A DNA stretch of 64,000 bases. Source: a virus. Shown one piece after another: positions 9,309 through 60,906 of the stretch; the first letter of the stretch is position 1; each line of letters opens with the position of its first letter. Location of the stretch: the UHGV virus genome UHGV-1359874; one strand, 5' to 3'. The notes beneath the pieces are model-generated. The model did not search any database. It saw only the letters and a program-made list of their open reading frames with translations, and was not told the DNA's origin. Both the position numbers and the translations under genes were made by a program.

Positions 9309-11120
9309 ATGCAGAATATTATTAAGAGAGATGGCACAACTCAGCCATTTAATAAATTTAAAATTGTAGATGCGGTATTAGCCGCATTCAAGGCTGTAGA
9401 TGGAGACATTTCAGAATATGCTGAAGTTAAGGCGGGTAATATCGCTGATTTCATTGAAGAAAAGGCCGAAAAGAAACAGCTTACTATTGAAGAAATTCAG
9501 GATTATGTCGAACGTGGTCTTTCCAGCACTAAACGGAAGGATGTAGCTAAAGCATTCATTCTTTATAGAGAAAAGCGTAATCAAGCAAGAGGAAATGTAA
9601 TTGATGATGCAGTTATGGAATTGCTTGATGGTACGAATGAATATTGGAAAACTGAAAATTCTAATAAAGATGCGGATGTTGTAACTGTCCAACGTGATTA
9701 TCTAGCTGGTATTATTAGTACAGATATTAGCCGTCGCAAGATTCTTACATCCGACATTTGTGAAGCACATGATGCTGGTATTATTCATGAACATGACATG
9801 GACTATCTCGCACAAAATGCTCTTTCAAACTGTTGTCTTATTAATGCAGAAGATATGTTGCAGAATGGCACTGTTATTAATGGTATCCGCATTGACCCTC
9901 AACATCGTTTATCTACAGCTACTACTGTATTGACCCAGATTATCACTGCAGTAGCCAGCTCACAGTACGGTGGTTGTACCATTTCTCTGACTCATCTAGC
10001 TCCCTATGTGCGAATGAGTTATAAAGATTATATTAGAAAATATATTGATTGGGGATTCGATACTGAGAAGGCAAAAGAATTCGCTAAGAAGGATTTAGCC
10101 AAGGAAATTCGTGATTCGGTTCAAACTTTTAATTATCAGATTAATTCTATGAGCACAACTAACGGTCAGGCCCCTTTCCTCTCCGTTTGTATGTATCTAG
10201 GTGAAACGGATGAATATAAACCAGAACTAGCTATGCTTATCGAAGAATTCCTTCGTCAACGTATTCTTGGTATGAAGAATGAAAAGGGAGTATATATTAC
10301 ACCCGCTTTTCCGAAATTACTTTATGTACTTGAAGAAGACAATATTCATGCGGATAGCAAGTATTTTTACTTAACAGAACTTGCCGCAGAATGTACAGCA
10401 AAACGTCTTGTTCCTGATTATATTTCAGAAAAAGTTATGAAGCAAAACAAGATTAATCCTACTACTGGCAAAGGTGAAGCTTATCCATGTATGGGATGTA
10501 GATCTTTCTTAACTCCAGACCGCACCACTAAGAATTATGCCCGCGCATTAAATTATAAAGAGGGTCAGGGGAAATATTATGGTCGCTTTAATATGGGTGT
10601 TACTACAATTAATCTTCCTGATATTGCATTTTCTTCAAAAGGTGATTTTGAACTGTTTTGGAAACTTTTTGATGAGCGTACTGAACTTTGTCATAAAGGT
10701 TTAAAAGTTCGTATCAAGAGACTTGAAAATGTAACTTCTGATGTCGCACCTATTCTTTGGCAGGATGGAGCATTTGCTAGACTTAATAAACATGAATCTA
10801 TTAAAGAACTGCTTCATCATGGATATGCAACTGCTTCTCTTGGTTATGCTGGACTTTATGAATGCGTAAAGTATATGACTGGTCATTCTCATTCAGATGG
10901 CGGCGTAGGCGAACTCTTTGGCTTAGAGGTAATGCAAGCACTTAATGATAAATGTAATGAATGGAAACGGCAAGAAGATATTGATTATTCTCTTTACGGC
11001 TCTCCTATCGAGTCAACTACTTACAAATTTGCTAAATGTTTAAAGAAGCGATTTGGTGATGATATTTTTATTAAACTTGACGGTTTTGATAGAAATTATA
11101 TAACTAATAGCTACCATTAA
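9309..11120 (+). CDS. nrdD: anaerobic ribonucleoside-triphosphate reductase NrdD, exon 1 (ATP-cone plus catalytic barrel; C-terminal glycyl-radical domain missing)
   Basis: N-terminal ATP-cone 'IIKRDGTTQPFNKFKI'. Length and composition fit class III RNR. The ORF stops before the Zn-ribbon and glycyl-radical region, which is found 1.1 kb downstream. Confidence 0.8.
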   Translation: MQNIIKRDGTTQPFNKFKIVDAVLAAFKAVDGDISEYAEVKAGNIADFIEEKAEKKQLTIEEIQDYVERGLSSTKRKDVAKAFILYREKRNQARGNVIDDAVMELLDGTNEYWKTENSNKDADVVTVQRDYLAGIISTDISRRKILTSDICEAHDAGIIHEHDMDYLAQNALSNCCLINAEDMLQNGTVINGIRIDPQHRLSTATTVLTQIITAVASSQYGGCTISLTHLAPYVRMSYKDYIRKYIDWGFDTEKAKEFAKKDLAKEIRDSVQTFNYQINSMSTTNGQAPFLSVCMYLGETDEYKPELAMLIEEFLRQRILGMKNEKGVYITPAFPKLLYVLEEDNIHADSKYFYLTELAAECTAKRLVPDYISEKVMKQNKINPTTGKGEAYPCMGCRSFLTPDRTTKNYARALNYKEGQGKYYGRFNMGVTTINLPDIAFSSKGDFELFWKLFDERTELCHKGLKVRIKRLENVTSDVAPILWQDGAFARLNKHESIKELLHHGYATASLGYAGLYECVKYMTGHSHSDGGVGELFGLEVMQALNDKCNEWKRQEDIDYSLYGSPIESTTYKFAKCLKKRFGDDIFIKLDGFDRNYITNSYH

Positions 11121-12235
11121 TTGGATAGTGGCTTAATATAGTGATATATTAAGAAAACCTTGTGAACTCTTTTAGAGGTGTCAGATTAAAAATCTGGCTA
11201 ACGGTTCAGAAGTAAGAAATTACAATATGAGTAAGGGAACCTAAGTCTTTAATAAAATAAAGATATGGTAATACCGTGCTAAGTTTGTTTTGTTCAATAA
11301 TAAAAAAATAAAGAAAGGAGGAAAAAAATGGGTAGACCGCCTAAATATATCATTAATATTGGAAATATTTATGATGATTATAAATGTATAGACATCATTC
11401 AAGAAACAACTGGTCAAAAAAGAAAAAAATATATTATGAAATGTCAAAAATGCGAAAAAGTAAAATCTATGTTAGGTTCAACAGTTGGATTGCATAAAGG
11501 AACAAAACATAAAAGCTGTGGAAAAGGATTAGGAATTACTTATGATGAATATTTTTATAAACGTTGGAAATCAATGAGAGCTAGAACTTCTCCAAATTTT
11601 TGGAATAGAGAAAATTATTATGATAGAGGTATTAACAGTGATGCTTTTGAAAGTTTCATAGATTTCTATAACGCAATGTATGAATCATGGAAAGCTCATG
11701 TAGCCATCTATGGAGAGCATGATACTTCTTTAGAACGTATAGATGTTGACAAGCCTTATACACCAGAAAATTGTTGTTGGATATGTCTTGATGAACAAAG
11801 AGGAAATTTACAAAAGACAAATTATTTTACAGTTGAAAATATTGAAACTGGAGAAATAGAGTATTGTAAAAATGCTTTACAATATACTTATGACCATCCA
11901 GAAATTCCTCATAGATACATATATGATTTATTGAAGTATAACAGAACTTATAAAGGTAAAAAATTTACTAAAATAACTAAGCAAGATTTTGAAAAATATA
12001 AAAAATCTCTAATTATTGAACAAACTTAAAAGTGTAACGACTATCGAAAGCCCATTATAGAAGAAAAATCTATAACTGGAAGTGAGTAGAGTAGTTCATT
12101 ATTGAACGAAGTGCAAGGATTCTATAATTCGGTAACAGAATAATAGAATATGAGATAGTCTATTCCCTCTTAAATATCAAGAAATTGAGGGTATAAAAGA
12201 TTCCTGTTTTTGAGAAAATTGATGCGTTCTCTAAG
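11121..12235 (+). mobile_element. putative group I intron interrupting nrdD, carrying an HNH homing-endonuclease ORF (boundaries approximate)
   Basis: A 1.1-kb non-coding and ORF-containing gap lies between two NrdD fragments. An R/P7-like element 'GTAACGACTATCG' sits at ~12034, just after the HEG stop. This is analogous to the T4 nrdD (sunY) intron. Confidence 0.65.
11328..12029 (+). CDS. intron-encoded HNH homing endonuclease
   Basis: HNH_3-type motif 'LERIDVDKPYTPENCCWICLDEQRGN'. Strong RBS aaaggagg. Located inside the nrdD gap. Confidence 0.7.
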   Translation: MGRPPKYIINIGNIYDDYKCIDIIQETTGQKRKKYIMKCQKCEKVKSMLGSTVGLHKGTKHKSCGKGLGITYDEYFYKRWKSMRARTSPNFWNRENYYDRGINSDAFESFIDFYNAMYESWKAHVAIYGEHDTSLERIDVDKPYTPENCCWICLDEQRGNLQKTNYFTVENIETGEIEYCKNALQYTYDHPEIPHRYIYDLLKYNRTYKGKKFTKITKQDFEKYKKSLIIEQT

Positions 12236-13599: not shown

Positions 13600-13863
13600 A
13601 TGAATAAGAAAATTATTGCTATTCTTCATCCTTTTGAGTATAAGCATTTTATTTATGTTTATCAGGATGGAAATAAAATTGATATGACAAAAGTTCTAAT
13701 TGATGATGTTCCGGATAATATCATTACTTTTGCTGAAAAATATAAGATTAATAAAATTGAGTTGTCTGGCCCTAAGCAATATGCAAAAGGTATCCAGAAG
13801 AAGATTCAAGAATATGAAATCACTAAATATGGTAAATCTAGACTTGATATTGAGTTGATTTAA
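13600..13863 (+). CDS. hypothetical protein (87 aa)
   Basis: ORF with RBS aaaggtg. Confidence 0.35.
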   Translation: MNKKIIAILHPFEYKHFIYVYQDGNKIDMTKVLIDDVPDNIITFAEKYKINKIELSGPKQYAKGIQKKIQEYEITKYGKSRLDIELI

Positions 13864-13886
13864 GATAAAAGGAGATAAAAGGAATT

Positions 13887-14147
13887 ATGAGTAAGCATCT
13901 TATTAAGGTTGAAGAAACTTGGCGTGCAGATTCTGAGGCGGAAGCTGCTCAGTTAATTAATGAAGCTAAGTCTGATGGCAGTTTTGAACTGGCTAAGTAT
14001 TCTTCTACACGCAGAACTATCAAGCAGAAGGGCGAGATTGTTGAAGAGTATATGCGAGTCTCTCTCCTGAAGGTTTTCGATGAAGAAAAGGAACCAGTGA
14101 ATGACGTTAAGGTTTCCTATGAGGTTACTGATTCTTTTTTAAAGTGA
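13887..14147 (+). CDS. hypothetical protein (86 aa)
   Basis: ORF with RBS aaaggag. Confidence 0.35.
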   Translation: MSKHLIKVEETWRADSEAEAAQLINEAKSDGSFELAKYSSTRRTIKQKGEIVEEYMRVSLLKVFDEEKEPVNDVKVSYEVTDSFLK

Positions 14148-14158
14148 GGTAAAATTTA

Positions 14159-14395
14159 ATGTTTATTAAAATTAAGTATTTTGATGAATCAATGCCTAAA
14201 CTTGAATTTATCGAAGGTAAGAAATCTGATTGGATTGATTTGCGGGCAGCTGAGGAACTCTTTATTCCTGCTAATACTTTTGCAATGATTCATCTGGGAG
14301 TAGCCATGAAGCTACCTGAAGGTTATGAAGCTCATATTGCACCTCGTTCCTCAACTTTCAAGAAATGGGGAATCATTCAGGTTAACTCTGTCGGT
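14159..14395 (+). CDS. dut: dUTPase exon 1 (motifs I-II and the start of motif III)
   Basis: 'WIDLRAAEE' (motif I-like), 'IAPRSSTFKKWGI' (motif II), ends '...QVNSVG' in the middle of motif III (G|VIDxDY). Confidence 0.75.
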
Positions 14396-15764
14396 AAATA
14401 AAAATTCCTAAAAAAGTTTGGTCGAAGTTCTTTCACCGGCGTAAGATAAAATTCATATAATAATGAAAAATAAAAGAAAAAGGAGTTTTGTCTTATAGCT
14501 ACTAAAACTATTAATTTTGGAACGGATGAATTTTTTATTTCTAAATATAAAGAATTAAAAAGTTCAAGAAAAATGGGAGAATTTTTTGACTGTAATAAAA
14601 CTTCTGTTTTAAATCATTGTAAAAAAATTGGATTTGATCCAAAAAGTCTTCAATCTCCTAAGTTAACAGAAAAACAAAAACAAGAAATTATTTCTTTATA
14701 TGAAGAAAAAACAGCTTCAGAATTAGCTAAAGTATATAATGTTTCAGATAGTTTAATCTCAAAAGTTTGGATGGAGGCTGGCAAAAGAGGAAAAAAACGA
14801 GTAGGTTGGTGCCATGATTTAACAGGACAAACTTTTGGCTATTTAACTGTTATTGAAAAAACAGATAAAAGAGGTCCAAGTGGCGGAGTTATTTGGAAAT
14901 GCTCTTGTAATTGTGGATTACCTTCTTGTTTAAAAGAAAAAGATATTCTTGGAGCTACTTTATTAGAAGGAAAAACGATTTCTTGCGGAGCAGTAGGAAA
15001 AAAGAATTTAGAAAAAGGAAGAGAAGTAAAAAATTTAATTGGTCAAAAATTTGGTCATTTAACAGTGATAAAAAGAGCTGAAAATAAAATTTTCCCTTCT
15101 GGATATTCTGCTTCTCAATGGTTATGTAAATGTGACTGCGGCAATGAAACAATTATTCTTGGAAGCAACTTAATTTCAGGGAATAGCCAATCTTGCATTT
15201 ATTGCAAAAAATCTCATGGAGAAAATAAAATTGAAGAACTTTTAAAAGAAAATAAACTTTCTTTTACTAGAGAACAAAGATTTGATACTTGTAAAAATAT
15301 TAGACCTTTACCTTTTGACTTTTATGTAAATAATCAATATTTAATAGAATTTGATGGTAAGCAGCATTTTGAAGCAACAGGTGAAAGATTTAATGAAGAA
15401 GTTGTACAAGATATTCAAAAAAGAGATAGCATAAAGAATGAATGGTGTAAAAAAAATAATATTCCACTAATTCGTATTCCTTATTCTCATTATAATGATT
15501 TAAAAATTGAAGATTTATTACTTGAAACTACAACTTTCTTAGTCAATAATGCCGACATAAAATCGCGGAATTAAGCGGGAAAGCTGAGATGCTAATCCGA
15601 ACCGAAGGCTAGGTTCAGCCTAGTCAGGGGCAACGCATAGGGAGTGAAAAGATATAATCTCCCCACGAGGCCGCGATACTTAAAAAGTAAAAAGATATGC
15701 TGAACTTATACAAATAAGAAGTATAAGAATTATAGGATAAAAAGCCTATAAGATAACATAAATG
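14396..15764 (+). mobile_element. putative group I intron in dut carrying a DUF559/Vsr-like homing-endonuclease ORF
   Basis: A 1.37-kb insert splits dUTPase motif III. The 5' splice site follows a U (ggt|) and the insert ends in G (..aatg|gtt). The 3' part (15575-15700) is a GC-rich structured segment containing 'GCGGGAAAGC' (P-element-like) and 'GGTTCAGCCTAGTCAGG'. Confidence 0.6.
14573..15574 (+). CDS. intron-encoded homing-endonuclease-like protein (Cys-rich tandem modules plus Vsr/DUF559-like nuclease); paralog of 3407..4375
   Basis: Repeats 'LTGQTFGYLTVI...WKCSCNCG' and 'LIGQKFGHLTVI...WLCKCDCGNE...SGNSQSC'. C-terminus 'PFDFYV...IEFDGKQHF...IPLIRIPY'. Confidence 0.6.
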   Translation: MGEFFDCNKTSVLNHCKKIGFDPKSLQSPKLTEKQKQEIISLYEEKTASELAKVYNVSDSLISKVWMEAGKRGKKRVGWCHDLTGQTFGYLTVIEKTDKRGPSGGVIWKCSCNCGLPSCLKEKDILGATLLEGKTISCGAVGKKNLEKGREVKNLIGQKFGHLTVIKRAENKIFPSGYSASQWLCKCDCGNETIILGSNLISGNSQSCIYCKKSHGENKIEELLKENKLSFTREQRFDTCKNIRPLPFDFYVNNQYLIEFDGKQHFEATGERFNEEVVQDIQKRDSIKNEWCKKNNIPLIRIPYSHYNDLKIEDLLLETTTFLVNNADIKSRN

Positions 15765-15962
15765 GTTATTGATGAGTCCTATGCGGGAGATGGGGACGAG
15801 TGGATGATGCCTGTATATGCAATCCGTGACACCAATATCCACAAGGGTGATCGCGTATGTCAGTTCCGTATCATGGAAAAGCAGCCCGCTGTACAGTTTG
15901 TTGAAGTTAAGCATCTTGAAGATGAAAATCGCGGTGGATTTGGTTCTACTGGCTCTAACTAA
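15765..15962 (+). CDS. dut: dUTPase exon 2 (motifs III-V)
   Basis: '[13 protein letters not shown]' (motif III continuation), 'KGDRVCQF' (motif IV), '[10 protein letters not shown]' (motif V). Confidence 0.75.
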
Positions 15963-15972
15963 AAAATAATTT

Positions 15973-16016
15973 GGAGCAATCTTTAATTAGATTGCTCCAT
16001 TTTTCTTGTTTTTTAC
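15973..16016 (+). terminator. rho-independent terminator after dut
   Basis: Hairpin ggagcaatc-tttaattag-attgctcc followed by a T-run. Confidence 0.65.
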
Positions 16017-16052
16017 TAAAATTTATGATATACTGAACTCAAGAAAAGAGGA

Positions 16053-16604
16053 ATGTATATGCGTAATATTCTGGCAATAGATGCAAGTACAAAATGTACT
16101 GGTATAGCTGTATATCAAGATAATAAACTAGTTCATTACTGTTGCATCACTTCTTCCAGTACTGATACTTTAAAACGTATTAAAATAATGGTTGAAGGTA
16201 TTGTTAAAATTTATCAAGAGTATAAAATCAATGAAGTTATTATGGAAGATGTTTTACCAGAAGATGTAAAACATTCTCAAAAAACTTTTAATGCTTTACA
16301 CTATTTACAAGCGGCAGTTGCTTTAAAATTACACGATTTTAAACAAAAGCTACAATTAGTTAATGTAAATACGTGGCGGCGTGCGTGTGGAATTCCGACT
16401 GGTCGCAATGTTATACGAGAGTCCGCAAAAAAGTTGGATATGCAGTTCGTTGCAGATCATTTTGGCATTACAGCAAATGATGATATATGTGATGCAATCT
16501 GTATTGGCTGGGCATATATCAATGTTGGTTTTAAAGAAGAAACAAAAGTAGAAAAGAAGAAGAAGTCTACAACACTAGATATTCCTGAAGAATCTGCTTT
16601 TTAA
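16053..16604 (+). CDS. RuvC-like Holliday-junction resolvase
   Basis: N-terminal 'ILAIDASTKCTGIAVY' matches the RuvC/YqgF catalytic Asp motif (hhGIDxGxxxxGhAh). Confidence 0.65.
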   Translation: MYMRNILAIDASTKCTGIAVYQDNKLVHYCCITSSSTDTLKRIKIMVEGIVKIYQEYKINEVIMEDVLPEDVKHSQKTFNALHYLQAAVALKLHDFKQKLQLVNVNTWRRACGIPTGRNVIRESAKKLDMQFVADHFGITANDDICDAICIGWAYINVGFKEETKVEKKKKSTTLDIPEESAF

Positions 16605-31383: not shown

Positions 31384-34300
31384 TTAAGATAAACTAGCCG
31401 TACCGGATGGGGAGGCTTCTATGTTAGACGTATAACCCAATACCATTCTTGTTGTGTATTTAAATTTATAATGTCCAGTAGTAAGATTAAAAGATACTAA
31501 TTCAAAACTACTAATTGGAATTACCCAATGTACTTCATTATCGCCTAGTGTAAAAGTAGAATTATTAAAAGTAGCATTCTTAACAACAAGATCTGTTGCT
31601 TCAATTTTATTGGCAACTATATTACCAACATAACTTGGTAAACTCGTCCCACCAACTCTTGAATTACTAGATAAATTTGTTCCATTACTGCTAAAAGTAG
31701 AACCTCCAACATCAATACTACCACCAGTAATATTTACATTATTAAATGTAGCATACCCGCCAGCTGTAATACTCCATCCAGGTCCACTCATTGAGCCATC
31801 TGAATACAAACTTAAAGAACCTGCAGATAAACTACTTGTTCCAATAGTCCATCCGCCAATGGCTCCAGATGTACTAGTTAAATAACCATTTGAATTAACA
31901 CTAAAAGTGCTACCAAGAGTAATTCCGCTAGTTGGATTTAATGACATTCCATTAGAAAATAAACTCTCACTACTAATTGTCCAGCCACCAATATGACCAT
32001 ATTTAGCGGTTAATTCACCAACACTAGAAACATAAAAATTATCTCCTAATCCAATACCTTCTGTTCCTAGATATATACCGGAACCATTACCTGGTCCATA
32101 TCCAGTTTTACCGCTATTTAAATTATTAGTTTTAATCGTCCATCCAGCTATTGTACCAGATTTTGCGGTTAATTCACCTAAACTAGTAACACTGAAATTA
32201 CTTCCAATTGACAAACCGTCAGTACCTAAATAAAATCCAGTATCACTAGATTCTAATCTGTCGTGAGAACCAGAATAAAGTGCAGAATGAGTGTCCGTCT
32301 CACCAGATTTTCCTATAACAATTTTATTCGTACCAGAACCAATAGTAGCAGTAGTAGCAGTTAAATGACCACCATAATTTACTACAAAATTCCCATTACC
32401 TGACCATATAGCCCAAGTACTATCTGTATCATTCTCGCTATCCCAACTATGAAGGCCAATTTTCCTATCCCTTGAAGATAGTTCATTGTCTCCAACACTC
32501 CATCCGCCAATGGTTCCACCATGTTCAATAGTAACGTAACCATTTGAACCATCAAGAGTAAAACCGCCTGAACCAGATTCCATGCGGGCACTAGATAAAT
32601 CAATTAAGAATCCACTACCAGATTTATTGCTTTCTGTATAATTTTGCGGCAATCCTTTTTCAGTATAATTTTTCCAATAATCACCACTATAAAGTAAAGC
32701 CTTACCTTCACTTGGATCAATAGCTAATGAACCTTGACCCTGACCGAAAATAGCGTGTCCATCTTCCGCATCTAGAGTAAAACTTCTTTTACCATCATAG
32801 AACCCAAACAATCCAGTCTCAGACTGAGTTTTATTTGACTCTTGAACTTCACCCATGAGCACACCGGTAAACTGATTCTTATTGTTCTTTTTACCAGCAC
32901 CCATCTGTGGCGATAGGATAAAACCGCCATCTTCATCTATTGATATTGAATTTCCATCCCAATCATTTAATTGAGATAGACCATACCTGTTTAAATAAAA
33001 ATGTATAGGAATATAAATTGTACCATAGTTACCGCATTTACAAATAACTGTATTATTAACGCATATTCCATGATAATTAGCTATTGGTTTAAAATTCCTT
33101 TGATTAGCATTTAACTTATCAGTATAAATGCTTGAATTTAAATGAATTAAATCATTTGAATCTAAATAAGCACTATCTGCAAAACTAAAATATCTTCCAC
33201 CTTTATTCCATTCACAAGTATCACTTTTAACCAAGGCAGAATTATTATAGATTTCTATTTCAAAAGGATTAGTGTTATCATATTTAGGTGTGGTTCCATC
33301 GCTAGTATATTGAACATAACTAAAACCACTATAATCTTTCAAATAAATACGATAATTACTATCCTCAACATAACTAATAATAATAGGAAGTGTAGTTATT
33401 AATATCTGATTATCATTATCTTTTTGATAATGAACAGTACATTTAATAATATTTGCACCGCAAACTTGTTCATCATGCGCCTGACCCGTATAATTTATTG
33501 TACCATTATTTTCATTAATAGTCAAATCAGAAGCATCTTCAACGTTATTCTTATACTTATTTTTTAAGATTTCCCAAGTAACATTTACTACTGGTTCATT
33601 AGATTCTAATAAATTTTCAGAACCCTCAAATACTAATTCTCCTTCTCGATAAACTTGTACTTTAAATGGTGCGCGAGTAGATGGAGAAGTTGTTATTAAA
33701 AACTGTTCTGCTCCAAAATTAAAATATCCAGATATATATTTCCCATCATCTGATTTTTGAATCATATTAAGAATAGGATATTGTGGAGTTACACTATTTG
33801 TATTTGGCACTATTCGACAAACAAAAGAAGTGCCATTAGTACCAGTTTCACCTTGTTTAGTAAACATTAAATTAGTTTTTGCAACTAAATTTATTTCTTT
33901 ATACTGAATTTTTAACTCAATGTCATTATTTTTATAATTATAATAATATTTATTTTGAATATTATAAGAAAGTTCTAGTGCTTGATTAAAATACTCATAA
34001 TCAAGAGAAGCATTAACTTCATGGGTACCTCTATCTGCAGAAACTTCAGTTAGCATCGTACTTTTAGTGGGAACTTTCCATTGAATAGATCCACCTTTAA
34101 TGACATCAGAGCTAATTTCACGACCTTGATTATCATAAACAGAAAAACTTAATGTTTCGATTGCTATTGGATTTGCTTGAGCTTTACTTGCCGGACTGAC
34201 ACCATTTTCATCATAATTAAATACTTGATTACCATTATTAATAATTAAACTGTAGCCATTTTTAGCTTCTAATAAATTTACAATTTTTATAGAAGCGGTT

Positions 34301-35805
34301 CCTTTATTACTTCCTGTAGAATCAATTACTGTACATTTATAAATTACAAAATCAACAATAGTTTGAACTTGAATATTTTTTGAAACTGGTCCTTCAACTT
34401 CTAATTGAGTTAAATTCCCATATTCATCTTCAACAGCCCAACTATAATTAAAGCTAGTATCAACTACACCATTAACTTTACAAGTTAATGTAGGACTTCC
34501 AACTCCATAATAAAATTCGGTTCCACTATCTGATTCAATAGAAATAGTAACAGTTCCTTTTTTATTTTTAATAGTAACTGTTTTAGTATAACTATTATTA
34601 TTATAAATAATTACACATTTAATCTTATTTTCTTTTGCGGCGGCTTGCAAAATACTTAAATCAAGTCTAGCACCTTGGTCAATCCATTCAACTTGATTAG
34701 TTTCTTCATCTATTACATTATATTTATTTAAACAACGCCATCCTTTTCCGCCATACTTATTATAAAATTTACTTTTATTGCCAATCGTTAAATCTTCAAT
34801 AAACCAATAGAAAGGAATCTTTTGAATAGTTGGATCAGCTACTCTACCTTTAATTCTTACCTGCGCAGTAATTGGTAGTGTTGCGGAGTCTGCGTCATTT
34901 TCTGTAAAGATCGCGCCACTGGGTGTTAATAGACTTAATGCACAACCGTTAAGCTCGGCCTCACTAAGCTCGGCACTCGCCGCAAATTCAATGTTGCTAA
35001 CTTCAATATCGTATAATTTGTTATTAGCAATTTCATCATCATTTTTCTGTTGTGGAAAGTTCTCTACAAAGAGAGAAATTTTGACAATACGATTAAAATT
35101 TGTTCCCGAGGCTTTATAAATTCCGAACTGTCTCTTGCCCAAAATTAATTGGTAGGGATTACCTACCATATTATCAACATCAACTACATAATTTTTAGTA
35201 TAAGTAGCGGTTTCATCTACGTCATTAGTATATTCAACAGTAAACATAATTCCATAATTACCTTTTAGCTGTTGCTCTGCGGCTAGTGAAGTTTTAAAGG
35301 TAGCACCGCAAATTAATGAAGTAGCTTGTTCCATATATTCTTTTAACGCATCATTATCAACGCTTAGAATATTATGTTCATCATCATAAAGAATAAACTC
35401 TCGATAAGTTTTTCCTTTATCTGGTTTATAATATGAGCTTAATGAATATGGAGAATTTTGTGATACACCATTAACGCCAATAATTTCATAGCCACTATCT
35501 TTATCACTTGGATTAATATAATCAACGCCTAGCTTATCAACAGTACCAAGAATAGTTTTATCCTTAGTCATATCATTCTGCGGAATCAAAATATAAACTA
35601 GTGTATTATCTCCATATACCACATCTGGACTACTTGCATAAGCATAAAAAGAGCTATCTTGATATTTAATCTTATACTTGCCAATAGATTCATCAACACA
35701 TGATTTCACTGTTGCTTGTATAGTCTTGTCAAAACCAGCCTCTTTTACAGACTTGTCAACTATTAGTTCAATAGCTTCACAAATATTGTCCTCTATATAA
35801 CTCAT
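31384..35805 (-). CDS. large tail structural protein (1473 aa) with C-terminal 'GGWTI' beta-repeats
   Basis: Repeats 'GTIAGWTIKTNNL...', 'HIGGWTISSESL...', 'AIGGWTIGTSSL...' near the C-terminus. Positioned directly downstream of the tape measure gene. Confidence 0.45.
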   Translation of the reverse strand: MSYIEDNICEAIELIVDKSVKEAGFDKTIQATVKSCVDESIGKYKIKYQDSSFYAYASSPDVVYGDNTLVYILIPQNDMTKDKTILGTVDKLGVDYINPSDKDSGYEIIGVNGVSQNSPYSLSSYYKPDKGKTYREFILYDDEHNILSVDNDALKEYMEQATSLICGATFKTSLAAEQQLKGNYGIMFTVEYTNDVDETATYTKNYVVDVDNMVGNPYQLILGKRQFGIYKASGTNFNRIVKISLFVENFPQQKNDDEIANNKLYDIEVSNIEFAASAELSEAELNGCALSLLTPSGAIFTENDADSATLPITAQVRIKGRVADPTIQKIPFYWFIEDLTIGNKSKFYNKYGGKGWRCLNKYNVIDEETNQVEWIDQGARLDLSILQAAAKENKIKCVIIYNNNSYTKTVTIKNKKGTVTISIESDSGTEFYYGVGSPTLTCKVNGVVDTSFNYSWAVEDEYGNLTQLEVEGPVSKNIQVQTIVDFVIYKCTVIDSTGSNKGTASIKIVNLLEAKNGYSLIINNGNQVFNYDENGVSPASKAQANPIAIETLSFSVYDNQGREISSDVIKGGSIQWKVPTKSTMLTEVSADRGTHEVNASLDYEYFNQALELSYNIQNKYYYNYKNNDIELKIQYKEINLVAKTNLMFTKQGETGTNGTSFVCRIVPNTNSVTPQYPILNMIQKSDDGKYISGYFNFGAEQFLITTSPSTRAPFKVQVYREGELVFEGSENLLESNEPVVNVTWEILKNKYKNNVEDASDLTINENNGTINYTGQAHDEQVCGANIIKCTVHYQKDNDNQILITTLPIIISYVEDSNYRIYLKDYSGFSYVQYTSDGTTPKYDNTNPFEIEIYNNSALVKSDTCEWNKGGRYFSFADSAYLDSNDLIHLNSSIYTDKLNANQRNFKPIANYHGICVNNTVICKCGNYGTIYIPIHFYLNRYGLSQLNDWDGNSISIDEDGGFILSPQMGAGKKNNKNQFTGVLMGEVQESNKTQSETGLFGFYDGKRSFTLDAEDGHAIFGQGQGSLAIDPSEGKALLYSGDYWKNYTEKGLPQNYTESNKSGSGFLIDLSSARMESGSGGFTLDGSNGYVTIEHGGTIGGWSVGDNELSSRDRKIGLHSWDSENDTDSTWAIWSGNGNFVVNYGGHLTATTATIGSGTNKIVIGKSGETDTHSALYSGSHDRLESSDTGFYLGTDGLSIGSNFSVTSLGELTAKSGTIAGWTIKTNNLNSGKTGYGPGNGSGIYLGTEGIGLGDNFYVSSVGELTAKYGHIGGWTISSESLFSNGMSLNPTSGITLGSTFSVNSNGYLTSTSGAIGGWTIGTSSLSAGSLSLYSDGSMSGPGWSITAGGYATFNNVNITGGSIDVGGSTFSSNGTNLSSNSRVGGTSLPSYVGNIVANKIEATDLVVKNATFNNSTFTLGDNEVHWVIPISSFELVSFNLTTGHYKFKYTTRMVLGYTSNIEASPSGTASLS

Positions 35806-35918: not shown

Positions 35919-38900
35919 TTATTTATTATTTCTATAAGCTCGTTGAGACGCAGTGTTCACTAAATTCTTGAGCGCAGTCTCGATCTGAGAAGCTTCGGTC
36001 TGACCCTCAAATTTAGCAGTAATATAAACTGTTTGTTCAAGAGTAGAAGAATCTTTAGGTGCGGTAACAGTACTTCCAATGGTTGAAAGTATGGCCGCAG
36101 TATTATTAAACACGTTATCTCCAATCCTACTAACTATTTCACGGAGAACATTCATCGCAGATAGCATATTCGCGGTATCATCTTTATTCAGAACTAATTC
36201 CTTTTGATGTAACAATGCTAGTCTGCCATCTTCACCCCAGGTACCAGTATAACCGCCAGTGTCATAGCCAAACAGCTGTGACTTTTTTATCCAGCCCAGA
36301 TCGCCATACTCGCCATCTGCAGAGTGAATATGAACGCCATAAGCGTTATCATTCATCTTGTCGATAACAACACCATCAGCTACACCGGAATATTTGCTTC
36401 CTGCTGGAGCTTTACCGTAAGAATCGTAATAATATCTACCATTATAACCAACAACATCACCAACAGATGCAGTACCATCTTTATCAGAACCAGAACCAGC
36501 TCCGCTATCAGAGCTAGAACTATTAGAAGAATTTGCAGCAGACATAGCCTTTGCCGCCTCTTCAGCACGTCTCCGTTCTTCCGCGGCTTGAGCTGCATCC
36601 TTCGCGTTTTTAGCTTGAATAAAGTCATATGCCGCCTTTGTAGCTCCAATGGCCTCACTCTTTGCTTGCCGGTACGCCGCAATTAATTCTTTAACCTGAT
36701 TAACAACATCACCGATAGCTTGATATTCTTGCTTAGCAGAATCAATTAACTGATTGCTTTCTTGAAGTAGCTTTTGACCTTCTTCATAAGCTTCATTGCT
36801 GACTCGCTGATTAGTTTGACTAATATTATCAATATTCTGGACATAATCTTGAGCAGCTTCTTTGAGCTTGTCGAATGTGTCCTGACAGGTCTGCTCAAAT
36901 CCGCCTTCGCCTGAGAATTTATCAATCATTTCCTGAACGCCGCTTGTCCATTCAGGAACAAGATTATTCATAATCAAATCTTTTTCTTCATCTGTCATAT
37001 TCTGAAAGTTAGAAACATCCACGTTATACAAATTAGCTAAATCATTAAATGCTGAATCAGTAAGATTTGTACGAATATTTAAGTTCTGTTCAGTTAAATA
37101 ATTAATCTTTTCACCATACTGCTCTTGTAATAGTGCAATATGTTCTTGCAAAGCATCTTGGTCATCTGCATAATCCTTATAAGCTTGAGCCACTTTATCT
37201 TGGAACTCACTCCATACGGAGTACATATCATTTAAATTATTTTTATAAGCATCTTTATCAAAGTTATATAGAGAATTTTGAGCATCAGCTAAATCTTGCT
37301 GCGCTTGACGAATTGAATCTTCATCAGATACAAACTGATAAGAATAGTTACCATTTGCATCACGCTTTAAACGCATCTTAGATTGATTCTGTTGAGCTTC
37401 TTGCAGGGCAATTTGCTTTAACGCAATCTCATATTCTTTTTCAGCGCGATCAATATCGTACTGAGTAAGTTCACCTTTTTCCTCAAGCATTTTCATTTGA
37501 GTCTGCATAAGTTCATTGAGTTTCTGCTGAGTAGTTACACTATCAGTATCATTAATAGCATCTTGCCACTTATTTTGTAACTGTTGCTTAGCATATGCAG
37601 CATTAATAGTATCTAAGTAATTATCAGCATTGTCATTTAGCAGATTTAACTGTTCCTCTAAGTAATCCAAACCTTTACCATTTGATACTTTATCATTAAG
37701 AGATTTAACAAGAGCATCAATAGTATTTTCATATTTGGTAGTTAATGCTTCTGCCCAGTTTTCAACTAGACCATTTACATCAGATACCGCACTCTTCCAA
37801 TTTTCTTCATATTTTTCAAGCGCTTCTTTATTACCATTACCTTGCTCGATTGCAGCACGTTCCGCATCCATTAATTGTTTCCAATAAGTCGCGGCATTCT
37901 GGCGGGCAGCTAGCTCAGCCTGGATATTAGTGAGTTGCTTTTCATAATAAGTGTCCATTAAATCATAGGCATCATCGCCATATAACTTCTGAATTAAATT
38001 AATATCATGGTTAATTTGATCGCCTAAGAATTCGTATGCTTCTTTATTTTTATCAAGAGCATCATTAACCGCATCAATAGAATCTAAGAAAGCATCCGTA
38101 ACATTTTGCTCTAAATCTTCAAGATTTTCAAGCTCAGTCATTAATTCTTTATAAGACTCTTTTAAATCATCAACTGCGGATGCCATATCATCTACCCAAG
38201 TTCCTGTTGCAGCATCATATGCAGAATAAATAGAAGAATGTCCGCCGTTCTGCATTTTCTGCAATTCACCTAATATTGAACCTGGAGTTGCAGTATTGCC
38301 AATTTTAGATGTAAGTGATTGAATAGAACCAACACCGCTATTTGCTGTGTTATAGTAAGAGAGTATATCTGCCCGATTTTGTAATGCTTTACCTAGTAAA
38401 TCATCATCATCGAGGTCATCAATTACTTTACGTTTAAATTCATTCCAATCCCGCATTGCCTCGCCCATGTCTAGACGAAGTTTGACCTCCATATCAAACT
38501 TTTGAACTTGAAGTTCAATGGCAGAAGAAAGTGCTTCGGTAATATCATCTTCAAGATCAGGAATAGTTTCGTTTATGAGTTTGTCGTAATTGGTAACCAT
38601 TTCTTTAATCTTATCATATTCCTTTTGAGCTTTAGTAACTTTCTTATCTGCTGCTTCATCTTGAGCATCCGCTGATAAAGAATTATACCAACCAATTACA
38701 CTATTAAGATTTTGTTGAGCTTTAGTAAGCAAAACTGCATAATTAGAAATTTCACCATTTGCATCAAAAGTAGCACCATACTGAGCTAAAGAGTTTTTAA
38801 TTTCATTAGCTTCTTGTTTAGCTAATTCAATTTTAGCTTTATAAGCATCTCTTTGTTTTTCGAGAATTACTAACTGTTTATTGAGATTATTAATTAAATC

Positions 38901-41900
38901 TTTACCAGTTAATTTATCTTGAACCTTTTGTAATCTATCATAACTATCTGTTAGATTATTAATCTTGATATTTATATCATGGTATCTATCAATGGTGTCA
39001 GTATTTAGATCTTTTGTCTTAGGTGTTTTAGGCTGAGAAGCTTTTCCACTTCCGCCACCGCCACCTCTTTTACCACTTCCACCACTCTTCTTAGAGGTTC
39101 TACCACTACCTCCGCCATGTCTAGGTGTACTATTAGTAAATTTAACATTGCCGCCAGTAGACTTTTTAGCAGAAGTAACTTGAACACCAGTACCTATTTG
39201 AGAAACTTTATTCTGAACAGTTACTTCTTTTGGTCTATAACTAATAGAAGGAATGTCATAAGGCTGTTTCTCATTTCCCAAGAAACCGACCATTGGGTAA
39301 ATAGCATTACCTTTATTATGAGTAACAATAGCTTCAACGCCAGCGTAAGTACTTTCTGAAGTCTGATCTTGCTGGGCAGATGTTACTTCTGCATCAATAC
39401 CCATTCCAGAAAGAATATCTTGAGCTTCATCAACAGTAACGCCTAAATCGTTGAGCATAGTAGTCAATCCAGCTAAGAAATCTGCATTATCAATACTAGC
39501 GCCAACTTGGATGTCATCTAAATTAATATTATATTGATCTAAAAGTCCATTAAATTCATCAAAAACAGCATTTATCTGTTCATCATCTAATCCAATTCCT
39601 AATAAAATATCTTGAACAGCAGCTTGTTGTAATTGCTCATAGGCTTCTTCACTACCATTTAAAGCATCCTGCATTAATTGAAGATTTTCTGTACTCTCTA
39701 AGAAAGAACTCGAAAGACGACTTCCATCAATATCAAGTAAATCGCCATAAGTTTCAGCTAATTCATCTGCAGTATCAGATGTTAAATGGCCTGTTTCTGC
39801 AGCAACTTCTAAATCATTTATCCAATCTTCTATGTTATCAATACTTGAATTAACAGCTTTATCATAACGAAGTTGGTCTTTTGCCATTTCCGCTAATTCT
39901 GAACTTGCTACTTCTGTATATTCACCAGAATCTTTAAGCTCTTTTGCATAGCGTTCAATATCTTCTGCGGCAAGACCAGTTTGTTCTGCAAGATAACCAG
40001 CCTGAGTAGCTAGCTCTAACGCACTGGTTGCATTATTAATAAGTACGTCATTTCCAGTACCAAGCGCGCTATTAAACCTTTCTAATTCATCAGATGTGCT
40101 ATCATAATTGCCCGCTAATTCAGTAAGCTTATTCGTATAATCATCAAAAGTAACGTTAGCACCAGAATTTAATGCTTTCGCAGTTTCCGCGGCAAGCTGA
40201 GCCGCATTTTCTGCAGAAGCCATATTATTAACTGCTTCAACAGTTGCTTGAGCTTGTTCTAAATTCTCTCTAAAGTCTGTAATATTAGGATTTAATCTTT
40301 CAAGAATTTCATCAAGATATTCTAGGTTATCTGTTGAAATATTTTCAAATATATCTTCATCGGTTGCGGTAGCAGGATTTTCTTCTGTTCCATTGCGTTT
40401 AGCTTCAGCAGCATATTCAGCTAAACGATCTCTTATAGCAGAAATTTTATCTGAATATTGAGTTGTAACACCCTCAAGCGAGCCATCTTCACCAATTTGG
40501 ACTTCTTCTACTGTTGGAAAAGTAGATTTTATAACAGTTAAAAAAGCATCGTGATTTGTCTTAGCTAATTCTTCCAAATCTTTATGCTTACTTAATAAGC
40601 CTTGTAGCTGATCCTCTAAACCTAAGACATAATCATTGTAAGTGCCCGCTACAGTACTTGAACTAGCCCATTCTTCTCCCGCTTTTTGTAGATCAGTGTT
40701 TAATGCAGCTCCGTTATCACCTTGGAATAAACTGTAAATAGCATTCATTGCATCTTGAGCACCTTGTATTACGTCATCTTGATTTTCAATACCATTAACA
40801 CCAAGTCTAACCCCTTGAAGATAGTTATTCAACATCGTATCTGCATTATCAAAACCAGCATCTTTTAGTTGATTATAAGCTGCATTTTTAGAGGGGTCAG
40901 ATGTTAAAATACCTTGAATATAGTCTACATTAATTTTAGAGGCTGCATCGGCAGCTGCTTGAGCTGCCTGAATTTCTGTTTCGCCTTCTTCTGTAAAAGA
41001 AGTTATACTATTAAGATAACTAGTTAAAGTATCTTTTATTGCATCTGAGCCTGGAATTTCAGATTTAATAATATCTAAAGCTTTATTAAAATCATCAGTT
41101 TGAACTGCATTTATCAAATCTTGTCCAGATTTATGTAAAGCAGTTGAAACTTTAGCAATAGCTTCTTGTACATCAGAAGAAACATTATCTAAAGTAGAAA
41201 CATTACTCTGTATTTGACCAACTGCAGTTTGCGCTCCTTGACGATAGCTGTTTATCCTATCTTGACCAGCAGAAGAATTAATATCATATTTAGCTTTTGT
41301 ATTTTCTAAATTTTTCTTTGCATCTTGATATTGTTTATCATATGCTTGCAAATTTTCTTTTTGATTATCAGTATAAAAATTTTGTTGTTGCATTTTATAC
41401 TGCTGTTCAAGCAAATCAATAGTATCTCTAATACCGTCTTGATTTTTAAGAACTGCTTCACCTTGGTCATTATAATAAGCTAATAAATCACTATTAAGAT
41501 TAACTAATTTATCTTTTATCTCGTTATATTGTTTTCGCTCTGATTCAGTTAAATTTTGAATATTCTTATCATAAGCACCAGCTCTTGCAGCTAACCTGTC
41601 ATAAGTTTCTTCTAAACCTTCTAATTCTTCTTTATTTGAACGATAAGTGCTAGAAGTATTGCTAAAATTCTGCATTGAATCATTTAAATTAGAAATTTGT
41701 TCTTCTGCTTCTTTAGCACTCATTGTCAAAGCATCATATGCAGTTGTAACAATAGGGATAGCAGTTGCTAATGCAGTTAAAGCTAATAGTGCAGGACCTG
41801 CTGGTGTTGCCATTATTGCCGCAAAAGTAGATTCCGCGGCACCAGTCAAACCTACTAAAGCTGTCTTTAATCCACCTATACCAGAAATAATAAGCGGGAT

Positions 41901-58099: not shown

Positions 58100-58991
58100 C
58101 TTTTATTCTTGTACTGTTTCGCTAACAGTTTCTTCAACTTTCATTGAAGGTGAGACTATATCTTCAGTATATCTCCATATATAACCTTTAAAAGTTTTTA
58201 GTTTACCTCGACAGCACTCTCCGATATGAGTTCCCTTTGAAGCTCCTATGGCTCTAGCCGCCGCGTTGGTAGAAGGATAAGTCATAATATATTTTCCATT
58301 TAAATCATATTGATTAACTTCTTTAGCCTTACCATTATTTGTATAATTCTTGGTTTCACCTAAAACAGTTTCTCTAGACCAATAAAAATTTCCTTTTAAA
58401 CTTTTTATATTTGTAAATAATTCTTGTTTAATAGTAGACTCGCTAATTCCAACAGCTTTTGCCGCTTCTGAAATTGTTCTGTATTCAGCAATTAATTTTT
58501 TATCTTTGTTAAAACAATATACATGAGGAAATTTCTTCAATTCATACTTCATTGAATGATGAACATTTTCCAGAGAAGTACACCATTCTAAATTATCTAC
58601 ATAGTTATTAGTTTTATCTCCATCAATATGATTTACTTGATTTCTCTTTGGATTATCATTTGGAATATAAGCTAAAGCAACCATACGATGAGCATAAACT
58701 CTTTTTTTAGAGCCATCTGGTAAAGTAATATTGTAACTTAAATAACCATTTTTGTAATTGTACTGGCCTTTTAAATATTTGTCAGTTTTACTATTATAAC
58801 ATTTTCCATCTTCAGTTATATAATACCAGGTACTGATATTATCAACAATAATTTGTCTCATAATAACAACCTTTCTTTTTTTCATACTGTGCTGTACTGG
58901 CTTCGCTTGAAGCCGTTAGTCGTTGAACCTTCTTCACTAGAATAATGAAGCTCGGCTGCTGATTGCCCAATCTAGTTAATTTTTAAAACAT
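58100..58991 (-). mobile_element. putative group I intron no. 2 in terL with an HNH HEG (boundaries approximate)
   Basis: The gap between TerL ATPase and nuclease fragments contains an R/P7-like core 'GGTTCAACGACTAACGG' (minus strand, plus-strand coordinates 58907-58924) and the HNH ORF. Confidence 0.6.
58103..58885 (-). CDS. intron-encoded HNH homing endonuclease (HNH plus C-terminal HTH)
   Basis: 'YAHRMVALAYIPNDNPKRNQVNHIDGDKTNNYVDNLEWCTSLEN' HNH_3 motif. 'ISEAAKAVGISESTI' NUMOD1-like HTH. Confidence 0.7.
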   Translation of the reverse strand: MKKRKVVIMRQIIVDNISTWYYITEDGKCYNSKTDKYLKGQYNYKNGYLSYNITLPDGSKKRVYAHRMVALAYIPNDNPKRNQVNHIDGDKTNNYVDNLEWCTSLENVHHSMKYELKKFPHVYCFNKDKKLIAEYRTISEAAKAVGISESTIKQELFTNIKSLKGNFYWSRETVLGETKNYTNNGKAKEVNQYDLNGKYIMTYPSTNAAARAIGASKGTHIGECCRGKLKTFKGYIWRYTEDIVSPSMKVEETVSETVQE

Positions 58992-59735
58992 TCATATTTT
59001 GCAATATTGTAGTTTAACTAGCTCTAAGGGGTTTCCAGCAATTCTCAGCAATTTAAAGAGTACATATCCTTTATACTCTCTGGCGAATGAGTCCTCTGCA
59101 TAAGTTCCCTGGAGTTTCAGAGTATCAACAAAATCTTCATCCAACAAACCTTCTATTACAGGTGTTTCATAAGTGCCACCAATAATCATAACCTCATTCG
59201 GTTCAATAATAGACTGAATCAAAAGCTCAATTAATTTAGAGTAGGCAAAAGAATTCTTCCAGCCTGCTGTAGTGATATATATCTGACTTTTGTTTACTGT
59301 CTCTTTGGGGTCACGCGTACCATCAGGAAGCAATCGGTTAACGTTTGTAGTAGGAATAACGATTTCATTCAACGCGGTTTGATCAATAAGAACGCACTCT
59401 TCCATTAGACCACCAACTCGGCGCTGACCACGAGAAGATTCACGAGCCGCGAGAATGTCAATAGAAGAACCATTTTTAAAAAGATATTTAACACTATCTT
59501 TTGATTTTGTTGATTTGCCCTTTTCCCAGTTTATTTCATTGTTCAATGCGGGGATAAGTCGGCATATCTCCTCGATCTTCGCGATCGTGATGCTAGCTGC
59601 TTGTTCTTTTCCGCCCGTCGTTACGAACAAGTTCGCACCCGGATAGAGAATACAACGAAGCATTAATACCATCATAGATAGGAATGATTTTGAATCTTTA
59701 TATTCTATTAAGTTCGCAAAACTTAATACGTTTTT
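58992..59735 (-). CDS. terL: large terminase, exon 2 (ATPase domain, post-Walker A); the 5' boundary lies within 59676..59735
   Basis: In-frame upstream extension gives 'KDSKSFLSMMVLMLRCILYPGANLFVTTGGKEQAASI', which is collinear with T4 gp17 '[29 protein letters not shown]'. Confidence 0.6.
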   Translation of the reverse strand, partial: KNVLSFANLIEYKDSKSFLSMMVLMLRCILYPGANLFVTTGGKEQAASITIAKIEEICRLIPALNNEINWEKGKSTKSKDSVKYLFKNGSSIDILAARESSRGQRRVGGLMEECVLIDQTALNEIVIPTTNVNRLLPDGTRDPKETVNKSQIYITTAGWKNSFAYSKLIELLIQSIIEPNEVMIIGGTYETPVIEGLLDEDFVDTLKLQGTYAEDSFAREYKGYVLFKLLRIAGNPLELVKLQYCKI

Positions 59736-60906
59736 TAAAAACTGCTTATAATTTCTTATAAGAATAGACTATTTCACATTTTACTTTTTAGTAAAACCTC
59801 TCCATTTCGATTTAAGGGGTTTTCACCCACCTCATAAGCTTAGGCCCTACTCCTATTGTTTCTATTATACCCCGGAAACTAAAGGATAGTCGTTGAAGTT
59901 TATTATTCTTTGTACCTAAAATGGAATCCTCCATGAGATTTATTAATTCCTCTGCAAACTTTAGAGATAGTACTTCCGTCTAAATGAAGTTCTCTTGCTG
60001 CTTCTGCACAAGAAGGAAAACTTCTAATGAATTTATCATCTAAAGTTAGCTGTTCAACTTCTTTACAAGAAGAATTAACTTTTTGAACATAATAGGCTTG
60101 TTTTACATTTTCTGAACACGTTAATAATCTTAAATTATCTAATCTATTATTTAATTTATTAGTGTCTTTATGGTCAATAATATGTCCTTCCGGAATCTCA
60201 TCTAAATCATTAAAAACACAATAAATTAATCTATGCACTAACATATCTTTTACTTGACCATTTTTACTTAGTCTAACTTTATAATATCCATTCGTTAAAC
60301 TTGGTTTTAACAATCTGAAAGTTTCATCATTTCTAATTCTTCCTTTTGAAGAAACAGAATAATGATATTTTGGAATTTTCTTCCATATCTCATTATCTAA
60401 ATTTTCTTTAAAAAATTCAGATTTTTGTCGTTCTTTAATTAAATTATTTTGATGTGCATGAGAAATATTTTCAGAATAAGTCACCCATTCAAGATTACTA
60501 ACTTCATTATTTAATTTATTCCCATCCTTATGATTTACCACAGGTAAATTATTTGGATTAGTAATAAAATATTCAGCTACTAGCCTATGAGCATAAAACA
60601 TTTTTTTATTACCATCTTTTGATAATCTATAATATTTATAACCATTTTCACCAATACTACCTTTTAAAACTTTATTAGTAGTTTTATTTAAAACATCACC
60701 ATTATCATAAATAAAATATTGTTCATACTCTTTAATTCTTTTTCTCATTTCTAGAACTCCTTTATTTAAGAATAATCTTACCTGCAGATTCCCTTGTCCA
60801 AGAAAACCTTCCTTAAGGTCTTTCACATATTTTTGGATTTAGAGTTCCTGCAATTAAAAGAGTTTGTCCAGAAAATTATATTAATTTTCGTTGGCGCATT
60901 TTCATA
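59736..60906 (-). mobile_element. putative group I intron no. 1 in terL with a double-HNH HEG (boundaries approximate)
   Basis: Splits terL at the Walker A P-loop. R/P7-like core 'CTTCAACGACTATCC' (minus strand, plus-strand coordinates 59878-59895) lies just after the HEG stop. Confidence 0.6.
59903..60826 (-). CDS. intron-encoded HNH homing endonuclease (two HNH modules plus a C-terminal HTH)
   Basis: 'YAHRLVAEYF...VVNHKDGNKLNNEVSNLEWVTYSEN' and 'LVHRLIYCVF...IDHKDTNKLNNRLDNLRLLTCSEN'. C-terminus 'AARELHLDGSTISKVCRG'. Confidence 0.7.
   Translation of the reverse strand: MKDLKEGFLGQGNLQVRLFLNKGVLEMRKRIKEYEQYFIYDNGDVLNKTTNKVLKGSIGENGYKYYRLSKDGNKKMFYAHRLVAEYFITNPNNLPVVNHKDGNKLNNEVSNLEWVTYSENISHAHQNNLIKERQKSEFFKENLDNEIWKKIPKYHYSVSSKGRIRNDETFRLLKPSLTNGYYKVRLSKNGQVKDMLVHRLIYCVFNDLDEIPEGHIIDHKDTNKLNNRLDNLRLLTCSENVKQAYYVQKVNSSCKEVEQLTLDDKFIRSFPSCAEAARELHLDGSTISKVCRGINKSHGGFHFRYKE

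Follow-up and report, generated by a model that had tools for sequence, protein, structure and literature searches.

The dUTPase gene at positions 14159–15962 of UHGV virus genome UHGV-1359874, analysed here as a single stretch of 64,000 nucleotides (nt; the window), is split within motif III, and the element that splits it is very probably (probability about 0.9) a mobile group I intron encoding a Vsr-like homing endonuclease of the EDxHD type in a phage gene. The observations that carry this assignment are the continuity of the two exons, RNA pairings with covariation, a nuclease fold in the encoded protein, recurrence of the insertion at the same site, and an intron that is less diverged than its surroundings. 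Both the intron and its endonuclease belong to known kinds, and the feature is ordinary in kind and well supported.

The split dUTPase gene and its intron

The interrupted gene is organised as follows, with exon 1 taken from the list of open reading frames (ORFs).

14159–14395, plus strand: dUTPase exon 1, 79 codons, ending ...NSVG
14396–15764, plus strand: group I intron of 1369 nt, with splice sites set by the P1 and P10 pairing seen across 12 introns and a fold supported by covariation in the core
14399–14401, plus strand: UAA stop that closes the exon 1 reading frame within the intron, two codons beyond the junction
15765–15962, plus strand: dUTPase exon 2, starting VIDESY... and containing the second half of motif III and motifs IV and V

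The ORF of exon 1 extends past the junction by a single lysine codon (14159–14401, 80 codons, ending ...NSVG-K-stop), and an in-frame stop early in the intron is common in the group I introns of phages and bacteria (PMC3984707). Joining 14395 to 15765 generates a protein of 144 amino acids (aa) that covers profile positions 17–129 of the 129 in the trimeric dUTPase family of Pfam (PF00692, 1e-15) and matches the PHROG 135 dUTPase family (6e-39) as well as the solved Bacillus subtilis dUTPases YncF (2xcd; 2e-58 over residues 1–143) and YosS (4e-55). Aligned with YosS, which is uninterrupted in its SPbeta-like phage, the joined protein displays 62% identity; the alignment runs through the junction NS(V/M)G-VIDESY without a gap, its only gap lying close to the N-terminus. 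The split is real and falls, as read from these alignments, between the Gly and Val codons of motif III; the sequence-only reading, which had proposed a dUTPase split inside this motif, placed the exons correctly, and their joined product is a full-length enzyme. No report of a group I intron in dUTPase was found in the literature, which makes this host gene modestly new and adds dUTPase to the nucleotide-metabolism genes that host mobile introns. Many dUTPase genes of uncultured phages are annotated as two fragments and a ‘hypothetical’ or ‘HNH’ protein, and recognition of the intron restores the complete enzyme.

The splice-site elements lie at both ends of the insert and on either side of the junctions.

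14389–14395, plus strand: P1 5′ strand UGUCGGU, 7/7 paired with 15551–15557
15545–15550, plus strand: P10 strand AAUAAU, 6/6 paired with GUUAUU (15765–15770), which opens exon 2
15551–15557, plus strand: internal guide sequence (P1 3′ strand) GCCGACA, within the last codons of the endonuclease ORF
15764, plus strand: terminal G (omega G) at the 3′ splice site, a G in 12/12 introns

The insert is preceded by U14395 and its last base is G15764, in agreement with the earlier proposal that an insert of about 1.37 kb obeys the splice-site rules of group I introns. U14395 stands opposite G15551, and a U.G pair thereby marks the 5′ splice site. The guide sequence lies 1155 nt downstream of that site, with the endonuclease gene filling the P1 loop and P2 absent. 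Across the 12 introns compared, which cover 4 different exon sequences, P1 is paired at 6–7 of 7 positions and P10 at 4–6 of 6, and P10 covaries with the 3′ exon. Similarly, P1 position −7 covaries, being U-A in the window and A-U in the related loci L007 and L105, and introns residing in other host genes match their own exons (AACGGGU/GCCCGUU in L050; UCACGGU/GCCGUGA in L046). The splice sites are thus fixed, since P1 and P10 complementarity tracks the exon sequences. The guide sequence is kept even in L007 and L009, where the ORF stops upstream of it, and in the ORF-less relative L003 a loop of 10 nt caps the same P1. Exon 1 ends in GTCGGT in all intron-containing alleles, while the intron-less alleles read GTAGGT (L135) and ATGGGT (YosS), a pattern in keeping with the constraint that P1 imposes. 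Two other guide candidates were rejected: GUCGA (14419–23) carries a disrupting substitution in the near-identical L005, and ACCGGC (14435–40) would put U-A in place of U.G and is missing from both L006 and L011, in which the 5′ leader measures only ~50–80 nt. GCCGACA at 15551–57, conserved and covarying, was preferred to both.

The structured RNA core spans 15545–15764, a longer stretch than the 15575–15700 first assigned to it, and comprises the following helices.

15562–15568, plus strand: P3 5′ strand AUCGCGG, partner 15671–15677 (RNAalifold; 5/6 counted pairs compensated)
15576–15599, plus strand: P4 (15576–79/15596–99) and P5 (15582–84/15591–93)
15602–15628, plus strand: P6 (15602–03/15627–28) and the P6a hairpin (15607–14/15618–25), 10/10 pairs compensated
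15634–15639, plus strand: P7 5′ strand CGCAUA, partner UAUGC-U-G at 15696–15702, forming a pseudoknot with P3
15640–15663, plus strand: P7.1-like extra hairpin GGGAG/CUCCC between P7 and P3′, 4/5 pairs compensated
15671–15677, plus strand: P3 3′ strand CCGCGAU (RNAalifold, covariation)
15678–15688, plus strand: P8, a short hairpin ACUU AAA AAGU
15696–15702, plus strand: P7 3′ strand UAUGC-U-G with bulged U15701
15705–15751, plus strand: P9 (15705–11/15721–27) and P9.1 (15730–36/15745–51), the latter with 5/7 pairs compensated

The predicted fold is an IA-like group I architecture in which P2 is absent and an extra hairpin is inserted between P7 and P3′. RNAalifold, applied to 19 sequences, independently recovers P3, P4, P5, P6, P6a, the P7.1-like hairpin, P9 and P9.1, with compensatory changes at 27 of the 41 predicted pairs; P7 was put into this structure by hand. 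With P7 included, 98.2% of cells pair, slid controls reach 30–43% and 0/500 shuffles attain the observed values, while the window sequence alone folds into most core helices (z = −3.46). The exchanges include G-C to U-A in P4, AGC/GCU to CCC/GGG in P5 and, at the closing pair of P9, C-G in the window to A-U in L006. The P8 site is occupied in L005, L006 and Clostridium phage phiCD211 by hairpins that differ in sequence and length, as judged by eye, these being uncountable in the alignment. P7 contains G-C and C-G pairs and the bulged U15701 and is a candidate guanosine-binding site, and a compensating change in P7 (GCGUA/UACGC) is present in L009, a locus found via its protein.

The intron-encoded endonuclease

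The endonuclease gene occupies most of the intron upstream of the core and carries its own translation signal.

14480–14485, plus strand: AAGGAG, which precedes codon 14495 by 9 nt as the ribosome-binding site for the endonuclease and is conserved in L005
14495–15574, plus strand: homing endonuclease ORF, 359 codons, in the P1 loop, its start set by homologue N-termini
15212–15571, plus strand: C-terminal Vsr-like (EDxHD-type) nuclease domain with D275, E285, D287, H291, D311 and K314 (359-aa numbering)

The reading frame is open from 14474, and the homologues begin with M-x-TK-x-INFG-x-DE, which corresponds to codon 14495 (e.g. P0001, P0003, P0009, P0019 and P0023). At codon 14495–14497 the window reads ATA, in contrast to the ATG of L005, L006, L007, L009 and L011; the 95%-identical homologue P0001 displays its ATG exactly at this ATA. 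The first in-frame ATG lies at 14573. The protein of 333 aa described initially starts at an internal Met, and the ORF comprises 359 codons, with a start that is non-canonical or damaged. A promoter scan returned one 10/12 site (14432–14461) upstream of the gene, with a regional count not above chance. In the window, L005, L006 and L011 the ORF also covers the P10 strand, guide sequence and P3 5′ strand, and its stop codon falls in J3/4. Two points are modestly new, namely an ORF that sits in the P1 loop and whose final codons overlap P10, P1 and P3, and the AUA start. A ribosome finishing the ORF would unfold the splice-site helices, and translation of the endonuclease and splicing would therefore be mutually exclusive on each transcript; this proposal, together with the ideas that AUA acts as an adaptive throttle and that the lineage deserves its own subgroup or Rfam family, is speculative and in our view rather improbable as a whole. 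The features that may speak for a separate subgroup are the non-canonical P7, the missing P2, the invisibility to the Rfam group I model RF00028 and the abundance in IMG/VR, where a single 16-mer finds at least 120 matches.

The AlphaFold (AF2) model of the protein (predicted local distance difference test, pLDDT, 86.5; predicted template modelling score, pTM, 0.40) resembles beads on a string, with two three-helix helix-turn-helix (HTH) modules (residues 11–45 and 59–94), two Cys-rich β modules that carry FG.LTV...W.C.C.CG...SCG repeats, and a C-terminal α/β nuclease domain; Pfam gives weak HTH matches. Structure comparison scored the matched structures as follows.

Vsr (1cw0): 10.0
I-Bth0305I catalytic domain (3r3p): 9.8 (90 of 98 residues)
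RAP domains (9g6k, two chains): 9.4 and 8.6
DUF559 protein (3hrl): 8.4

The catalytic domain, as modelled, has the Vsr endonuclease fold, and the presence of Vsr (1cw0), 3r3p and 3hrl among the matched structures agrees with the Vsr-like nuclease domain that had been proposed from the letters of the intron ORF. The six residues D275, E285, D287, H291, D311 and K314 are conserved in at least 90% of homologues and all intact in the window. Pfam yields no Vsr or DUF559 match and a weak one to DUF2726 at a sub-threshold 3e-4, and a search of NCBIfam with the intron ORF yields no match. The nuclease domain is 47% identical to gp191 of Klebsiella phage Muenster, labelled EDxHD by its depositors (HHpred to 3R3P, 97%), and the link to I-Bth0305I is only indirect at the sequence level because it runs via gp191.

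The EDxHD family is one of six homing endonuclease families (PMC3984707) and unites intron and intein endonucleases in which N-terminal NUMOD/HTH modules precede a Vsr-like nuclease, with I-Bth0305I as the founder (PMC3239194). The window protein is likewise encoded inside an intron and, in the model, displays an N-terminal HTH region. Residues D275, D287, H291 and D311 can be paired tentatively with D196, N208, H213 and D222 of I-Bth0305I, in the same order and at broadly similar spacing, and a candidate EDxHD motif in the expected order is provided by the conserved E243 or E247, D275, D287, H291 and D311, with spacings of 12 and 4 versus 12 and 5 in I-Bth0305I. The domain is extremely widespread: at E ≤ 1e-3 it is found in 16,688 sequences that each represent a 50%-identity cluster, nearly always at the C-terminal end. 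Its carriers among cultured phages are mostly annotated ‘HNH endonuclease’ or ‘hypothetical’, and the GenBank phage collection contains no full-length homologue of the endonuclease.

Recurrence, proposed mechanism and alternatives

A search with the intron ORF returned homologues of 50–95% identity, and every homologue whose contig was fetched (P0001, P0023, P0009, P0005 and P0033, at loci L005, L006, L007, L009 and L011) is encoded within a dUTPase gene whose split falls at the same codon. Further dUTPase cases with the same site are L016, L047, L063 and L105, while L135 and YosS are intron-less alleles. A near-identical cultured phage was not found. Diverged alleles sharing one insertion site, together with intron-less alleles, provide a convenient system for studying target recognition by a Vsr-like homing endonuclease. 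When window positions 13650–16160 are compared with L005, identity is 93–97% inside the intron and 82–91% in the flanking genes, and synonymous divergence, at 0.21 in the endonuclease gene, rises to 0.52 for exon 1, 1.2 for exon 2 and 1.1 for the gene upstream. The intron is less diverged than its flanks and has therefore been shared more recently than the host genes. Homing with short co-conversion tracts would produce such a pattern, which represents a footprint of recent horizontal spread.

The intron belongs to a large RNA lineage that escapes the Rfam model, a further point of modest novelty. Rfam gives zero matches in the whole window at the gathering score, and the RF00028 search of 14396–15764 that had been suggested as a check returned no match, comparative analysis being used instead. 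RF00028 misses 13/13 tested members of the lineage yet detects neighbouring canonical introns; the miss is a limit of the model and not a defining property of the group I class. A distant BLAST search finds sequences similar to the 3′ non-coding part in the non-coding DNA of numerous phages, with 91% identity over 69 nt (J8/7 to P9.1) to Clostridium phage phiCD211, and a 16-mer from the conserved 3′ core finds at least 120 matching stretches in the viral contigs of IMG/VR. A covariance model built for the lineage, R1, has 72 matches in 47 other loci and a sole match in the window (15549–15767, 233 bits), and BLAST of the non-coding parts of the intron against the window finds no second copy. 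RF00028 and R1 each detect only their own kind of intron, RF00028 giving sub-threshold matches to the introns at 58–60 kb and none to the dUTPase intron, so that the suggestion of a second intron lineage holds. The lineage is very common in phages, and a lineage-specific model such as R1 would correct the gap in Rfam; RF00028 misses this common lineage and, therefore, intron density in phage genomes is probably underestimated.

Several points weigh against a mobile group I intron with an active EDxHD endonuclease. Splicing in vivo is inferred, as are the activity and target of the endonuclease. RF00028 has no match in the intron region even at E ≤ 10, where only chance matches of snoRNA type appear. 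P7 and the six counted pairs of P9 are invariant in the main alignment (A1), partly as a result of fetching members with a 16-mer that spans those pairs, and P8 has only 4 bp. For the protein, Foldseek places 3r3p and 1cw0 at the top by probability, but with weak E-values, and neither phmmer with the ORF nor a 30-sequence HMMER profile retrieves any PDB chain, 3r3p included, at E ≤ 10. Finally, with an ATA start there may be little or no production of the endonuclease.

In the proposed mechanism, the ribozyme core (15545–15764) would fold after transcription, with GCCGACA pairing to the last 7 nt of exon 1 to leave the U.G pair at the cleavage site, and the adjacent AAUAAU pairing to the start of exon 2 in P10. 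Through two guanosine-dependent transesterifications exon 1 would be ligated to exon 2, yielding the mRNA of a normal 144-aa dUTPase of the trimeric type. During co-infection the endonuclease would cut intron-less dUTPase alleles near the insertion site, a synthetic intron-less form of which would read ...AACTCTGTAGGT followed directly by GTTATTGATGAG..., and repair of the cut allele would copy the intron in.

The alternative that survives best shares the splicing intron and differs in the fate of its endonuclease, which would be silenced or beginning to decay in this genome through the change of ATG to ATA, such that this copy no longer homes; this would represent the first stage of the homing-endonuclease loss cycle. 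It is a possible outcome, although the less likely one. The ATA at 14495, where L005, L006, L007, L009 and L011 have ATG, speaks for it, as does the next in-frame ATG (14573), which has no Shine-Dalgarno sequence and would, if used, delete half of the first HTH module. However, AUA behind a strong AAGGAG can initiate translation at a low level, the other 358 codons are intact with the conserved catalytic residues all present, and the dN/dS of 0.11 for the endonuclease gene (window versus L005) points to recent purifying selection. Low expression of the endonuclease is, moreover, normal where the ORF reaches into the intron core (PMC3984707). The ATA could also be a single-read or assembly error.

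Far less probable is the explanation that no intron exists and that a free-standing endonuclease gene splits dUTPase into separately translated pieces that reassemble, or else that the gene is dead. Phage genes fractured by endonucleases in this way are known, and an ATG at 15762 opens a 66-codon ORF across exon 2. That ATG is not preceded by a ribosome-binding site, however, and the split would fall within the conserved motif III, as the alignments with YosS and YncF reveal. The flanking non-coding RNA carries group I pairings and heavy covariation, with P1 and P10 following the exon sequences, and diverged phages, with exons that remain under strong purifying selection (exon 1 dN 0.005), have the gene split at exactly this junction. 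A group II intron or an intein, for which zero supporting evidence was found, is refuted by these results: an in-frame stop two codons past the junction excludes an intein, Rfam group II families are absent among the matches at E ≤ 10, the intron ORF has no reverse-transcriptase or maturase match in Pfam or PHROGs, and the P1/P10 pairings, the U.G pair, the terminal G and the P3/P7 pseudoknot mark the RNA as group I, the class to which the sequence-only reading had assigned it over group II.

Neighbouring genes, other introns and comparison with known systems

Downstream of exon 2 the gene is followed by one further element.

15972–15999, plus strand: terminator-like hairpin with an 11-bp stem and a T run, 10 nt past the dUTPase stop codon

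Beyond the hairpin lies a gene for a RuvC-like resolvase (16053–16604), and RuvC-family neighbours are likewise present in L007 and L009. Upstream, nrdD (9309–11120, anaerobic ribonucleotide reductase) is apparently interrupted by a group I intron at about 11121–12235, which has a canonical P7 (ACGACUAU at ~12036 and AUAGUCU at ~12155) and an ORF (11328–12029) of 233 aa that matches the PHROG 374 ‘HNH endonuclease’ family; this ORF was considered as a paralogue of the endonuclease in the dUTPase intron and rejected (BLASTP E 0.25). On the minus strand, RF00028 gives sub-threshold matches at 58134–58319 (30.4 bits), 58884–59108 (35.6 bits) and 59745–59892 (28.8 bits; gathering score 50), of which the first two are halves of one match, ~560 nt apart. 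These matches suggest that the late-gene region at 58134–59892 contains a minimum of two further group I introns. Elsewhere in the window, a minus-strand ORF of 2867 aa (35919–44522) matches a tape-measure family only over roughly its first 1400 residues, and the adjacent ORF of 1473 aa (31384–35805) has zero PHROG matches.

The ribozyme core of the dUTPase intron recurs in the cultured phages phiCD211 (L002 2311–2578), Listeria phage LIS04 (L001 2990–3212) and Leptolyngbya phage Lbo-JY46 (L004 2407–2645), with R1 scores of 111–136 bits. None of these copies is annotated as an intron in its record, and their host genes are tail genes, a Hint-annotated gene and a DNA polymerase gene rather than dUTPase. 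Unlike the window intron, the phiCD211 copy carries no ORF. In phiCD211 two introns (2311–2578 and 2599–2863) lie back to back between the ORFs of a minor tail protein and the tape measure; the second alone is annotated (Intron_gpI), and the first is the member of the dUTPase-intron lineage (R1 112.7 bits). The LIS04 member (135.5 bits) is located directly 3′ of an ‘endonuclease’ ORF that is flanked by ORFs for an ‘intein splicing region protein’ and a ‘Hint domain protein’, and the locus is probably one gene split by an unannotated intron.

Among the introns of phages with Gram-positive hosts, those of Twort orf142, the SPO1 DNA polymerase gene and Kayvirus terL (IA2-type) share with the dUTPase intron the IA architecture and extra helices between P7 and P3′. 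In contrast to the introns compared from this group, the dUTPase intron has no P2, and its P7 is CGCAUA/UAUGC(U)G where the Kayvirus terL intron and the nrdD intron of the window display ACGACUA with AUAGUCU. The ends of the Twort ribozyme (GCAACG..., ...CUGAAC and ...UAACAUAAUUG) may resemble those of the window intron. In the Kayvirus Team1, a Staphylococcus phage (L136 881–2285), terL is in two pieces with ORF086, annotated as hypothetical, between them, in an intron with a canonical P7. The ORF086 protein is 31% identical to the endonuclease of the dUTPase intron and of the same family; it sits in a different RNA lineage, and one endonuclease family therefore occurs in different ribozymes.

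The closest characterised endonuclease for comparison is I-Bth0305I, encoded in a group I intron of recA of Bacillus phage 0305phi8-36 (PDB 3r3p; PMC3239194). I-Bth0305I has 266 aa, whereas the window protein has 359 aa and two extra Cys-rich β modules, and its E285 and K314 confer a more classical PD-(D/E)xK appearance than that of I-Bth0305I. The two introns differ in host gene and RNA lineage and also in the location of the ORF, which occupies the P1 loop in the window intron and P5 in the recA intron. Vsr (1cw0, 1vsr) and the DUF559 protein (3hrl) are, in contrast, single-domain chromosomal proteins of repair or unknown function that are not encoded by introns, and Vsr has in addition a zinc site and intercalating Trp residues (PMC3239194).

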